This document shows, piece after piece, positions 46,452-54,135 of a stretch of 64,000 nucleotides of DNA; the first letter of the stretch is position 1; each line of letters opens with the position of its first letter. Source of the DNA: Escherichia coli (GTDB taxonomy: Bacteria; Pseudomonadota; Gammaproteobacteria; Enterobacterales; Enterobacteriaceae). The stretch is from assembly GCF_045037415.1 (NCBI RefSeq), contig NZ_CP173438.1. One strand, 5' to 3'. The notes beneath the pieces are model-generated. The model did no database searches, was not told the origin of the DNA, and saw nothing but the letters and a program-made list of their open reading frames with translations. The position numbers and the translations under genes are program-made.

Positions 46452-46573
46452 AACGCTTCCCCACGACCTCTTCGTGGTGACTATCATAACCTGATTTGAT
46501 TTCAGCTTCAGAAAAAAGGGCAAAAACTTGTACTTTCATCAGGTTATCAAATGTCCTGTGATCGCCATCGCAT

Positions 46574-46595
46574 ATCAACCAACTAGATGGTTGAT
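46574..46595. promoter_or_regulatory. Inverted repeat atcaacca-actaga-tggttgat; candidate TetR operator in divergent promoter region
   Basis: 8-bp perfect inverted repeat with 6-bp spacer between the TetR gene and the SDR gene. Confidence 0.4.
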
Positions 46596-46663
46596 CTTTT
46601 TATCCTCCAGTCGCAAGCTAATCATCACTAAGGAAACAAAATTCAAAAAAAGAGAGCTATTGT

Positions 46664-47455
46664 ATGAAATCCACTCGTCCTGTTGCCGTGATTACCGGAG
46701 CCGCTCGTGGTATTGGAAAGGGCTGTGCGCTGGAGCTTGCGCGTGGCGGATTTAATCTGCTGATTAATGATCGTCCGGATGCGGATAGCGTAGAAAAATT
46801 ACATGCCACACAACAAGAATGTCTGGCGGAAGGCGTGGAAGTGATTTGCTTCCCTGCTGATGTGGGCGATCTCTCCCTGCATGAAGAGATGCTCGACGCA
46901 GCGCAAAACCAGTGGGGACGTCTGGACTGCCTGCTCAACAACGCAGGCATTTCAGTGAAAAAACGCGGTGACCTTCTCGACCTCGAACCAGACAGCTTCG
47001 ACCAAAATATTGCCATTAACACCCGCGCACCGTTCTTCCTTGCTCAGGCATTCAGTAAGCGCTTACTGGCACAGCCGAAACCGGAAGCAGAACTGCCGCA
47101 CCGCTCGATTATTTTTGTCAGTTCCATCAACGCCATCATGCTGGCGATGAATCGCGGCGAATATACCATTGCCAAAACTGCCGTCTCTGCCGCTGCTCGT
47201 CTGTTTGCTGCTCGCCTTTGTAATGAACAAATTGGCGTATATGAAGTGCGTCCTGGTCTCATCAAAACCGATATGACTATTCCGGCAACGGCCTATTACG
47301 ACGAACTGATTGCCAAAGGTCTGGTGCCGTGGGGACGTTGGGGTTATCCGGCGGATATTGCTTCCACTGTCCGCGCGATGGCGGAAGGTAAACTTATTTA
47401 CACCTGTGGTCAGGCGGTCGCCATCGACGGCGGCTTAAGTATGCCGCGCTTCTGA
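46664..47455 (+). CDS. Short-chain dehydrogenase/reductase (3-oxoacyl reductase-like)
   Basis: ORF track 263 aa; TGAARGIG cofactor motif; YxxxK (YTIAK) catalytic motif. Confidence 0.8.
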   Translation: MKSTRPVAVITGAARGIGKGCALELARGGFNLLINDRPDADSVEKLHATQQECLAEGVEVICFPADVGDLSLHEEMLDAAQNQWGRLDCLLNNAGISVKKRGDLLDLEPDSFDQNIAINTRAPFFLAQAFSKRLLAQPKPEAELPHRSIIFVSSINAIMLAMNRGEYTIAKTAVSAAARLFAARLCNEQIGVYEVRPGLIKTDMTIPATAYYDELIAKGLVPWGRWGYPADIASTVRAMAEGKLIYTCGQAVAIDGGLSMPRF

Positions 47456-47464
47456 GGCTGAATC

Positions 47465-52713: not shown

Positions 52714-52805
52714 TTTCCAATATTTCCTCTGTACCTGATTTTTATTGCCTATTACATGGAAATACCAACAACCAGGGTTTATTAATATAATTAAAAGGTT
52801 TAAAA

Positions 52806-54083
52806 ATGAATAAAATAAAGAATTATCGATGGCATATGATTGCCCTCGTATGCTTTATCACTGTAATCAATTATCTGGACAGAACGGCGTTAGGTATTGC
52901 GGCTCCAACGATTATGGAGACAACCGGAATAACCAAAGAACAATATTCATGGATTGTCAGTGCATTCCAGTTGGCCTATACATTGGGGCAACCGATAATG
53001 GGCTTCTTTATTGATACCGTGGGTCTGAAGTTAAGTTTTGCGATATGTGCCGCAATCTGGGGCCTGGCGACAATGGGGCATGCCTTGACAGGAACATGGT
53101 CAGGTCTGGCATTTATGCGCGCCCTGATGGGTTTCAGCGAAGCATCGGCAATTCCTGCGGGTGTAAAAACCGCATCAACATGGTTCCCGGCAAAAGAGCG
53201 TGGCGTGGCGACAGGTGTTTTCAATATGGGCACCTCACTCGGCGCGATGCTTGCTCCACCGTTGATTGCCTGGTGCATTATGTTTCATAGCTGGCAATTT
53301 GCGTTTATTGTCTCAGGTAGCCTTGCTTTACTCGCGGCTTTATTTTGGTTCTTTTGTTATAAAGATCCAAAAGATGCTAAACGCCTTTCTGATGAAGAGC
53401 GCCACTATATTGAGTCTGGGCAAGAACAGCATCTTAAAACAGATAAGAAAGAAAAAACGTCAATCAAGCATATCCTCAGCCAACGTAATTTCTGGGGGAT
53501 TGGCATCGCGCGTTTTCTCGCTGACCCGGCATGGGGAACCATTAACTTCTGGGTACCGATTTTCTTCGTCGAAACGCTGCATTTTAGCCTGAAAGAAATT
53601 GCCATGTTCGTCTGGCTACCTTTCCTGCTGGGCGATCTCGGCTGTTTAGCCAGTGGTTTTGTCGCGAAGTTCTTCCACGATCGCGGCGTGAGTTTAATTA
53701 ACTCACGAAGAATTACCTTCACTATTGCAGCCGTCATTATGATGACGATTGGTCTGGTGAGTATTGTCGAAAATCCCTACATCGCCGTATTACTGATTAG
53801 CATTGGCGCATTCTCGCATCAATGTCTTTCTACTGTTGCAGCAACTCTGGGCGGTGACCTATTCAAAAAAGACGAAGTAGCTACCGCTGTGGGTATGGCA
53901 GGAGCCTGTGCATGGAGCGGTCAGTTGATTTTCAACCTGTTTATCGGGGCATTCGTTCACATTATCGGCTTCGCGCCGTTCTTTATTGCCCTGGCTTTCT
54001 TTGACATTATTGGCGCCATTGCGCTGTGGACGCTTATCAAAGTTAAAGACGAAGAACCACAAGTACAGTTAGCGACAAGCTAA
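52806..54083 (+). CDS. MFS transporter, anion:cation symporter-like (organic acid/sugar acid permease)
   Basis: ORF track 425 aa; 12-TM-type profile; LDRTALGIAAP N-terminal MFS signature. Confidence 0.8.
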   Translation: MNKIKNYRWHMIALVCFITVINYLDRTALGIAAPTIMETTGITKEQYSWIVSAFQLAYTLGQPIMGFFIDTVGLKLSFAICAAIWGLATMGHALTGTWSGLAFMRALMGFSEASAIPAGVKTASTWFPAKERGVATGVFNMGTSLGAMLAPPLIAWCIMFHSWQFAFIVSGSLALLAALFWFFCYKDPKDAKRLSDEERHYIESGQEQHLKTDKKEKTSIKHILSQRNFWGIGIARFLADPAWGTINFWVPIFFVETLHFSLKEIAMFVWLPFLLGDLGCLASGFVAKFFHDRGVSLINSRRITFTIAAVIMMTIGLVSIVENPYIAVLLISIGAFSHQCLSTVAATLGGDLFKKDEVATAVGMAGACAWSGQLIFNLFIGAFVHIIGFAPFFIALAFFDIIGAIALWTLIKVKDEEPQVQLATS

Positions 54084-54092
54084 TTATTTTAC

Positions 54093-54135
54093 ATAGAAAC
54101 GCTATAATTTAGCTTTGTAGCGTTTCTATTTTTCT
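54093..54135 (+). terminator. Rho-independent terminator after MFS transporter gene
   Basis: 12-bp stem atagaaacgcta / tagcgtttctat followed by ttttt, 10 nt after stop. Confidence 0.65.

Follow-up and report, generated by a model that had tools for sequence, protein, structure and literature searches.

A widespread Escherichia coli operon built around an uncharacterized SdhA-like flavoprotein and its possible role in the catabolism of hexuronate-type sugar acids

Introduction

Which compound does Escherichia coli degrade with an operon that joins a short-chain dehydrogenase/reductase (SDR), a TIM-barrel protein, a crotonase, a family-I coenzyme A (CoA) transferase, a large flavoprotein, and a permease, and by what chemistry? 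This operon, together with a divergent TetR-type regulator gene, occupies positions 45804–54135 of the stretch of E. coli DNA analyzed here (64,000 nucleotides of contig NZ_CP173438.1, assembly GCF_045037415.1; hereafter the window). It is a real, ordinary-looking catabolic operon, the chemistry and key enzyme family of which are uncharacterized. A preliminary description, made from the sequence alone, could match this enzyme combination to no named E. coli pathway, and the same conclusion was reached here, as the database names of the proteins and of their cluster members are all generic. Literature searches under six RefSeq protein accessions of the unit, on the combination of enzyme names, on PDB entry 7VPF and SMc04130, and on 4-O-methyl-glucuronate catabolism returned nothing relevant.

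The reading proposed here, to which a probability of roughly 45% is given, is that a TetR-repressed catabolic operon converts a hexuronate-like sugar acid to 2-keto-3-deoxygluconate (KDG). Gene content, conservation, transporter homology, and neighborhood links carry the argument, and from them we infer each of the chemical steps.

Organization of the operon and its regulatory region

The gene content given by the open reading frame (ORF) listing agrees with the RefSeq annotation of an identical genome. A TetR/AcrR-family regulator of 215 amino acids, counted from the RefSeq start, is encoded on the minus strand at 45804–46451, and its orthologues contain the Pfam domains TetR_N and TetR_C_29. 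Across a shared regulatory region of 212 bp (46452–46663), five enzyme genes follow one another on the plus strand. These encode a classical SDR oxidoreductase of the NCBIfam PRK12745 family (263 amino acids, 46664–47455; 420 bits against a cutoff of 250), a xylose-isomerase-like TIM-barrel protein with an AP_endonuc_2 domain (280 amino acids, 47465–48307; Pfam E-value 8e-37), a crotonase/enoyl-CoA hydratase matching NCBIfam short-chain enoyl-CoA hydratase families below their cutoffs (258 amino acids, 48317–49093, with an alternative ATG at 48311), a family-I CoA-transferase of the YdiF/propionate-CoA-transferase type (513 amino acids, 49103–50644; E-value 8e-116 to YdiF, PDB 2ahu), and an SdhA/FrdA/NadB-like flavoprotein with an FAD_binding_2 domain (690 amino acids, 50641–52713; Pfam E-value 1e-27). 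The intergenic gaps measure 9 nt, 9 nt (3 nt with the alternative crotonase start), and 9 nt, and the CoA-transferase and flavoprotein genes share an ATGA overlap at 50641–50644 that is preceded by GGAGG. A gap of 92 nt separates the flavoprotein gene from the plus-strand gene of a major facilitator superfamily (MFS) permease (52806–54083), which belongs to the anion:cation symporter family (TIGR00893) and is a paralogue of ExuT. Transcription in this direction would end at an intrinsic terminator (54093–54135) consisting of a 15-bp stem at 54093–54129 with a 7-nt loop, followed by TTTTTCT.

The preliminary description had reported five packed plus-strand genes with an ATGA overlap, an MFS gene after 92 nt, and a strong terminator behind it, all of which were recovered at the same coordinates; the divergent regulator gene that it placed upstream is likewise real and lies just outside the interval it covered, which started at 46452. 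Generic promoter and terminator scans gave counts no higher than those in shuffled controls. In some E. coli records, the CoA-transferase and the flavoprotein form a single polypeptide with Pfam CoA_trans and FAD_binding_2 domains (P0003, 1078 amino acids; P0030, 1043 amino acids). Such records probably go back to a lost stop codon at the ATGA overlap, with a sequencing frameshift and a genuine fusion being equally possible.

A candidate TetR operator is found at 46574–46595, where the 22-bp palindrome ATCAACCAACT/AGATGGTTGAT has 11-nt arms that are 91% complementary. Its core, CAACCAAC(T/C)AGATGGTTGATC, is invariant in the TetR–SDR spacers of six species, whereas the mean column identity of the whole spacer is 73%, suggesting that the core is the phylogenetic footprint of an operator. 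This palindrome had already been singled out in the preliminary description. Among 86 loci searched, the operator pattern occurs in nine orthologous loci alone, with one copy in each; the idea that it is shared with clusters whose TetR is about 42% identical was ruled out, the pattern being confined to close orthologues. These features support the existence of one compact unit with a divergent TetR gene and a footprinted, putative operator. A second inverted repeat, TCCCCACGA/TCGTGGTGA, lies at 46458–46480, just upstream of the TetR start codon, with 9-nt arms and a 5-nt spacer, and is poorly conserved in the six-species alignment.

Conservation, distribution, and loss in K-12

E. coli shares the order of the seven genes with E. 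albertii, E. whittamii, Entomohabitans, Klebsiella oxytoca, and some Salmonella enterica, and in these taxa the genes occupy the same chromosomal site with ytfB on one side and rplI-rpsR-priB-rpsF on the other. Relative to K. oxytoca and Salmonella, the enzymes are 78–94% identical in protein sequence, synonymous sites are saturated, and the ratio of nonsynonymous to synonymous substitution rates (dN/dS) lies at 0.02–0.15 for all seven genes (0.04 for TetR and 0.02–0.08 for the enzymes). Of 5426 complete E. coli genomes, 3122 (57.5%) carry the flavoprotein gene, which is 90–100% identical at the nucleotide level in all but ten of them. The few matches in a plasmid collection were all to chromosome-sized records, so carriage on plasmids was rejected and the unit is regarded as chromosomal.

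K-12 retains 403 bp from the 3′ end of the TetR gene as the pseudogene ytfA (window positions 45804–46206) and, beside it and next to yjfZ, a 102-bp piece of the SDR gene with 79% identity to 46753–46854 (locus L082, 2588–3096). K-12 thus carries the deletion scar of the whole operon. The presence at the same site across genera, together with these remnants, argues that the locus is ancestral in Enterobacteriaceae and was deleted from K-12 and from about 42% of E. coli genomes, rather than being a recent or foreign island. The word "orphan" applied to the operon in the preliminary description is therefore not appropriate. Insertion sequences have also been found in individual strains. In strain 21366 the region contains an IS5-like ISKpn26, and in NZ_OZ040331.1 the MFS gene is split by an IS1, suggesting that inactivation is ongoing in some lineages.

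Genomic neighborhoods of the flavoprotein family

Relatives of the flavoprotein were sought in one genome per species, which yielded 324 encoded relatives, and the best 80 loci were kept. For the neighbor counts, all ORFs of the loci were clustered and labeled by homology, and partners were counted within 9 kb of the flavoprotein gene in 78 loci. Several components of the E. coli unit recur there: an SDR in 23 loci (directly upstream of the flavoprotein gene in 9, and also seen in metagenomic relatives), a TIM barrel in 21, a TetR regulator in 15, and the CoA-transferase/crotonase pair in 12. Gfo/Idh/MocA oxidoreductases occur in 35 loci (18 of one type and 17 of another), glucose-methanol-choline (GMC) flavoproteins in 27, LacI regulators in 27, and PfkB kinases in 13, with the kinase gene directly downstream of the flavoprotein gene in 12.

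In 12 Rhodobacteraceae loci, the gene immediately downstream of the flavoprotein gene encodes a homologue of the KDG kinase KdgK (37–41% identity to K-12 KdgK over the full length), and in one of the loci examined (L054) a gene for 2-keto-3-deoxy-6-phosphogluconate (KDPG) aldolase comes after the kinase gene. A 40%-identical relative of the flavoprotein is encoded in the order flavoprotein–aldolase–PfkB with gaps of 4 and 0 nt, the aldolase scoring above its NCBIfam cutoff. In Accumulibacter (L047), an SDR–flavoprotein pair adjoins KDG kinase, Eda, a tripartite ATP-independent periplasmic (TRAP) transport system, and an enolase-superfamily sugar-acid dehydratase. Furthermore, a KduI equivalog (402 bits against a cutoff of 250) adjoins the flavoprotein gene in Pelagicoccus, and in Raoultella a glycoside hydrolase family 88 (GH88) unsaturated-glucuronyl hydrolase and a second anion MFS protein lie beside a LacI-divergent set of CoA-transferase, crotonase, MFS, and flavoprotein genes. 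A sediment relative follows a GH4 glycosidase. The smallest arrangement encountered is a metagenomic operon in which a TetR gene faces genes for SDR, flavoprotein (46% identity), TIM barrel, and the TRAP components DctP, DctQ, and DctM, without CoA enzymes. These mutually independent links, read from gene order, all appear to put the flavoprotein just upstream of KDG. In the Planctomycetes and Lentisphaerae loci, the neighbors were mostly housekeeping or unassignable genes.

A recurrent operon of Rhizobiales and Rhodobacteraceae (L040, L042, L054, L074, L078, and others) comprises a glucose-binding-protein-like ATP-binding cassette (ABC) transport system, two GMC flavoproteins, a Dabb protein, a LacI regulator, a levoglucosan-dehydrogenase-like Gfo/Idh/MocA enzyme, the flavoprotein, KdgK, and sometimes Eda. 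No recognizable dehydratase was seen in this operon, in which a neutral sugar would have to reach KDG.

Transporters as a clue to the substrate

The MFS permease of the window is 47% identical to K-12 ExuT over the full length, compared with 27% to DgoT and GarP. Two allele forms with the same enzyme genes exist in E. coli, one with the MFS gene (1685 genomes) and one with a TRAP system (DctQ, DctM, DctP) in its place (1446 genomes). In examples of the latter (L105, 8603–11447, from E. coli ATCC 43886; L003, 12103–14946), the last ~230 bp of the flavoprotein gene are divergent. In K. oxytoca and Salmonella, the permease is a third MFS protein of the ExuT family (L083/L085, 12128–13405), only 52% identical to that of E. 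coli, as opposed to 78–94% for the adjacent enzymes. The transporter appears to be the fast-changing or exchanged part of the operon.

The best PDB matches of the TRAP-allele DctP, at E-values from 1e-71 to 1e-57, all belong to a single group of binding proteins, namely 4ovr, 4x8r, 4n8y, 4n15, 4n91, 4mij/4mhf, 4p1l, 4xfe, 4ovq, 4x04, and 4pf8. Among these, 4N91 binds D-glucuronate, 4MHF binds glucuronate and galacturonate, and 4N15 was the template used for STM3169, a glucuronate-binding protein (PMC7660916), while 4N8Y holds galacturonate and 4X8R holds glucuronate (PMC11668362). The DctP of the minimal metagenomic operon also has its best matches in this hexuronate-binder group. No better clue to the substrate class is available than these two or three unrelated transporter solutions, each of which is nearest to hexuronate carriers. 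An imported carboxylate, as assumed in the preliminary description, is supported by a transporter that is an anion-type MFS protein or, allelically, a TRAP system. The aromatic or bile-acid-like substrates that it also suggested are not, as transporter homology and the neighborhoods of relatives indicate a hexuronate-like acid and KDG metabolism.

The flavoprotein family

Relatives of the flavoprotein at 54–60% identity are found in Yersinia, Pantoea, Brenneria, rhizobia, Rhodobacteraceae, and Accumulibacter/Propionivibrio, as well as in Planctomycetota, Lentisphaerae, and Verrucomicrobia, and an exhaustive profile search returned 419 cluster representatives of the family at E ≤ 1e-30. The AlphaFold model of the E. 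coli protein has a predicted local distance difference test score (pLDDT) of 81.8 and a predicted template-modeling score (pTM) of 0.88. The nearest solved folds are those of SdhA and FrdA, with template-modeling (TM) scores of 0.6–0.66 in Foldseek and 15–19% identity. Hundreds of full-length structural matches in AFDB50, including proteins of gut anaerobes and of an Asgard archaeon, bear generic names only. A structure search for a characterized relative yielded only generic SdhA, FrdA, NadB, and APS-reductase folds and unnamed AFDB entries; the family is without any characterized member.

The carboxylate-site His (HxxGG) and Arg (THGxxR) of the FAD domain are kept as the invariant residues H437 and R469, and the family has many specific invariant Arg, His, and Lys residues of its own, together with a GGGSRGAR motif. 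When the remainder of the dicarboxylate site was compared, the His of QFHPT was found to be replaced by Gly (QFGIGT), and the Thr-Glu...Arg proton path of the clamp domain was not recognizable, with no Glu or Arg aligned there. Fe-S and membrane-anchor partner subunits were found in none of the loci examined, and the E. coli flavoprotein contains neither an old yellow enzyme (OYE)-like nor an FMN_bind domain. An OYE-like NADH:flavin oxidoreductase does follow, or is fused to, relatives at 39–41% identity (P0183, L096, L097). In characterized enoate reductases, such as those for acrylate and fumarate, NADH is oxidized by the OYE-like domain, and its electrons pass to the FAD_binding_2 domain, where the enoate is reduced (bioRxiv 10.1101/2022.01.20.477176).

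The CoA enzymes, SDR, and TIM barrel

E324 of the CoA-transferase aligns with Glu333 of YdiF, which is reportedly the catalytic residue that forms the glutamyl-CoA thioester (work ascribed to Rangarajan and coworkers in 2005). The family-I assignment made in the preliminary description is borne out by the strong match to YdiF and by retention of this residue, and the sequence, which has the fused α/β CoA_trans fold of the YdiF/Pct type, supports a functional CoA-transferase. The crotonase assignment of that description is likewise supported. The GGGxE and xPE motifs of enoyl-CoA hydratases such as the rat enzyme hold the two catalytic glutamates; both are present in the crotonase translation, as GGGIE and NPE, and the orthologues contain the Pfam domain ECH_1.

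The closest structures to the SDR, 4da9 and 4one, are both annotated without a function, and its identity is 29% to KduD and 28% to IdnO. The TIM barrel is most similar to the uncharacterized structures 3qc0 and 3ju2 (E-value 4e-85) and only weakly similar to IolI, IolO, and hydroxypyruvate isomerase.

The association of CoA enzymes with the flavoprotein extends to distant lineages. In Puniceicoccaceae (L046), a family-III CoA-transferase replaces the family-I enzyme and occurs with a crotonase, an aldehyde dehydrogenase, a sugar porter, and a sulfatase; a locus of a Rhodobacteraceae metagenome-assembled genome (L079) has the order flavoprotein–KdgK–CoA-transferase–crotonase; and a betaproteobacterial locus (L020) reads CoA-transferase–crotonase–TRAP–MaoC–acyl-CoA dehydrogenase–electron transfer flavoprotein (ETF)–TIM barrel–flavoprotein. 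The best structural match of the TRAP binding protein in this last locus, 4nx1/4ovp, presumably holds mannuronate or taluronate. The non-orthologous replacement of the transferase and the repeated association suggest a functional link of CoA transfer and hydration or dehydration with both the flavoprotein and the formation of KDG.

A proposed route to KDG and its alternatives

In the proposed route, TetR would bind the conserved palindrome and be released by the substrate or an intermediate. The acid would enter via the ExuT paralogue or, in the other E. coli allele, via the TRAP system with its glucuronate/galacturonate-type binding protein. The CoA-transferase would then form the acyl-CoA thioester of the sugar acid, with acetyl-CoA or the product-CoA as donor, and the crotonase would eliminate the hydroxyl group β to the thioester, that is, the C4-OH of a uronate or the C3-OH of an aldonate. 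The thioester may thereby provide the α-proton acidity that is otherwise the job of metal-dependent dehydratases and lyases. The transferase could subsequently free the 4-deoxy-5-keto (2-keto-3-deoxy) acid, passing its CoA to the next substrate molecule. Aldose–ketose isomerization and carbonyl reduction may fall to the TIM barrel and the SDR, which would act like KduI/KduD or UxaC/UxuB by way of other folds, and KdgK and Eda, encoded elsewhere in E. coli, would complete the pathway from KDG. The sequence of activation, hydration, and oxidation or reduction put forward in the preliminary description is plausible.

The flavoprotein, as the universal and defining component, would act at the carbons adjoining the carboxylate, and three roles can be considered for it. 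It may reduce a 4,5-unsaturated uronate of the 2-alkoxy-acrylate type, for which the OYE-like partner of the 39–41% relatives speaks; it may oxidize a 2-hydroxy-3-deoxy acid to a 2-keto acid in the manner of NadB, in keeping with the position of its gene immediately before KdgK; or it may catalyze a flavin-assisted hydration or dehydration. As a precedent, 2-haloacrylate hydratase, reportedly a flavoenzyme that adds water to a 2-substituted acrylate, was considered and set aside. No scheme was found that strictly requires all five enzymes.

Several points weigh against the proposed route. A path from a uronate to KDG can be written without the flavoprotein, which leaves the most conserved component without an assigned step, and no enzyme of the unit has a characterized close relative, so that all of the chemistry has to be deduced. 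The identity of the SDR to KduD is only 29%, and the PfkB proteins score below curated cutoffs. We know of no hexuronate CoA thioesters as a class of metabolites. The transporters near relatives in other taxa are heterogeneous, comprising ShiA-like, PcaK-like, and FucP-like MFS proteins, sugar porters, and a glucose-binding-protein-like ABC system; their diversity, in some cases alongside GMC oxidoreductases and aldehyde dehydrogenases, suggests that different organisms feed different precursors, including oxidized neutral sugars, into the same core, and it weakens any claim for a single substrate. Finally, E. coli already consumes glucuronate and galacturonate through UxaC, and the true substrate is therefore likely to be a different uronate or keto acid. 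L-Iduronate, mannuronate/guluronate, 4-O-methyl-glucuronate, an unsaturated uronate, and 4-deoxy-5-keto-uronate (DKI) are candidates, although to name them is speculation.

The general form of the scheme in the preliminary description would be a β-oxidation-like shortening of a deoxy- or hydroxy-carboxylate, in which the CoA-transferase activates the acid, the flavoprotein replaces an acyl-CoA dehydrogenase, the crotonase hydrates, the SDR oxidizes the 3-hydroxyacyl-CoA, and a housekeeping thiolase cleaves. The four enzymes do amount to one turn of β-oxidation minus the thiolase, the betaproteobacterial locus adds MaoC, an acyl-CoA dehydrogenase, and ETF, and sugar-acid CoA esters have a precedent in the acyl-CoA route proposed for deoxyribonate in K. 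michiganensis (PMC6365646), which the scheme is similar to in design. However, the published Klebsiella cluster holds other genes, namely those for a CoA synthetase, 3-hydroxyacyl-CoA dehydrogenase (HADH), thiolase, and glycerate kinase (PMC6365646), and on these grounds identity of the unit with the deoxyribonate acyl-CoA pathway was rejected. A thiolase is linked in none of the E. coli-type loci, the TIM barrel receives no role, and both the adjacency of KdgK, Eda, and KduI and the minimal SDR–flavoprotein–TIM-barrel–TRAP operon without CoA enzymes are left unexplained, which makes this shortening scheme unlikely, if the strongest of the rivals. An electron sink is harder still to credit. 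Here the flavoprotein would belong with the enoate reductases for fumarate, acrylate, or cinnamate, acting for instance on a 4,5-unsaturated uronate from CoA-dependent dehydration, in parallel with the conversion of carnitine via crotonobetaine to γ-butyrobetaine by the cai system. The invariant H437 and R469 and the OYE-like proteins fused to or following the 39–41% relatives (P0183, L096, L097) agree with such an activity, but an OYE or FMN_bind partner is lacking in E. coli, Gly replaces the QFHPT His, the Glu/Arg proton path of the fumarate reductase clamp is not recognizable, many carriers are strict aerobes, and the link to KdgK and Eda favors carbon assimilation.

Catabolism or modification of quinate, shikimate, or another cyclitol carboxylic acid has also been considered, with the TIM barrel as a dehydratase and the flavoprotein acting on a ring enoate. 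The PF01261 TIM-barrel family includes dehydroshikimate and inosose dehydratases, quinate is sterically like a pyranuronate, a ShiA-like metabolite:H+ symporter (MHS) protein lies near the Raoultella relative, and PcaK-like aromatic-acid symporters occur in Brenneria and Propionivibrio (three loci). Nevertheless, aroD, aroE, quiA, and protocatechuate genes were seen in none of the loci, the E. coli transporters resemble hexuronate carriers, and links to KdgK, Eda, KduI, GH88, and a sugar-acid dehydratase would make no sense for cyclitols; the likelihood of this substrate class is very small. The last alternative is that there is no single pathway and that the unit is a chance mosaic of a TetR–SDR–TIM-barrel–flavoprotein module and a CoA-transferase–crotonase module, or else a decaying remnant. 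The two modules are indeed found separately in other taxa, and the locus has been lost from K-12 and about 42% of E. coli genomes. Such an origin is scarcely credible, however, for an operon with identical gene order and tight spacing in at least five genera, enzyme dN/dS values of 0.02–0.08, translational coupling via the ATGA overlap, and a CoA module that recurs with the flavoprotein in unrelated lineages, a non-orthologous transferase included. The conversion of a hexuronate-like acid to KDG stays the preferred reading. A more specific version of it, in which the operon is an undescribed entry into the Entner-Doudoroff pathway for a UxaC-refractory hexuronate-type acid that is CoA-activated and β-eliminated by the crotonase, with a new class of SdhA-like flavoenzyme, comprising hundreds of clusters at 50% identity, doing a new reaction next to the carboxylate, is put forward more tentatively and is doubtful as a whole. 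On this version, the route would serve over half of E. coli strains as well as diverse bacteria from soil, the sea, and the gut.

Comparison with known systems

The unit is most like the hexuronate and DKI routes to KDG and resembles the cai system in design, without being a member of either. In the Ashwell pathway (ExuT, UxaC, UxuB/UxaB, UxuA/UxaA, KdgK, Eda), the importer belongs to the same family as the MFS protein of the unit, the KDG end point is likely shared, and the logic of isomerase, reductase, and dehydration is possibly shared. The candidate isomerase of the unit is the xylose-isomerase-like TIM barrel, however, and its candidate reductase is the SDR, whereas the Ashwell pathway has no counterpart to the CoA-transferase/crotonase pair or to the flavoprotein and is regulated by the GntR-type ExuR instead of a TetR protein. 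Homologues of UxaC, UxaA, ExuR, and KduI were not found in the E. coli-type cluster, and K-12 UxaC and UxaA gave no tblastn match in any locus.

The KduI/KduD route from DKI via 2,5-diketo-3-deoxygluconate (DKII) to KDG, with GH88 and KdgF upstream, likewise uses an isomerase and an SDR reductase, and a KduI equivalog and GH88 adjoin flavoprotein relatives. In contrast, the TIM barrel of the unit bears no relation to KduI, which is a cupin, its SDR is distant from KduD, and an unsaturated uronate would need to be produced internally or imported.

The cai operon (CaiT, CaiB, CaiD, CaiA) shows the same design, combining a transporter, a CoA-transferase, dehydration by a crotonase, and a flavoprotein acting on the enoyl product, with CoA recycled by transfer. 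It differs in that CaiB is a family-III transferase and CaiA has an acyl-CoA-dehydrogenase fold and is fed by FixABCX; in the unit, a family-I transferase and an SdhA-like flavoprotein would serve another substrate class. The 2-deoxy-D-ribonate acyl-CoA route of K. michiganensis (Price et al., 2019, PMC6365646) also handles a sugar acid as a CoA thioester after import by an MFS protein, but its cluster is a different locus without flavoprotein, TIM barrel, or crotonase (PMC6365646). With the soluble FAD_binding_2 reductases (of fumarate, urocanate, acrylate, and cinnamate) and with SdhA, FrdA, and NadB, the flavoprotein shares the overall four-domain fold with capping, helical, and C-terminal domains as well as the His/Arg carboxylate site, and its distant relatives pair with an OYE-like domain; the E. 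coli protein differs from these enzymes in being without an Fe-S, cytochrome, FMN_bind, or OYE partner.

Flanking genes

Directly downstream of the unit, on the minus strand, lies a HipA-family toxin gene that is split by a frameshift into ORFs at 54226–54987 and 54987–55493, accompanied by a helix-turn-helix antitoxin-like gene at 55496–55987 on the same strand. This pair is not present in the K. oxytoca, Salmonella, or TRAP-allele loci.

Significance

If the proposed reading is true, the operon represents a selectively maintained catabolic capacity in most E. coli, clinical and commensal lineages included, which has escaped study because K-12 deleted the unit. Once its substrate is identified, the operon would point to a further nutrient niche with a bearing on colonization of the gut or the urinary tract, and the natural exchange between MFS and TRAP alleles offers an unusually direct experimental handle, since ligands can be sought with the soluble binding protein. 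The unit could show that CoA thioesters are used for the dehydration of sugar acids, a chemistry not known for hexuronates. Moreover, it would assign a function to a very large uncharacterized flavoprotein family.

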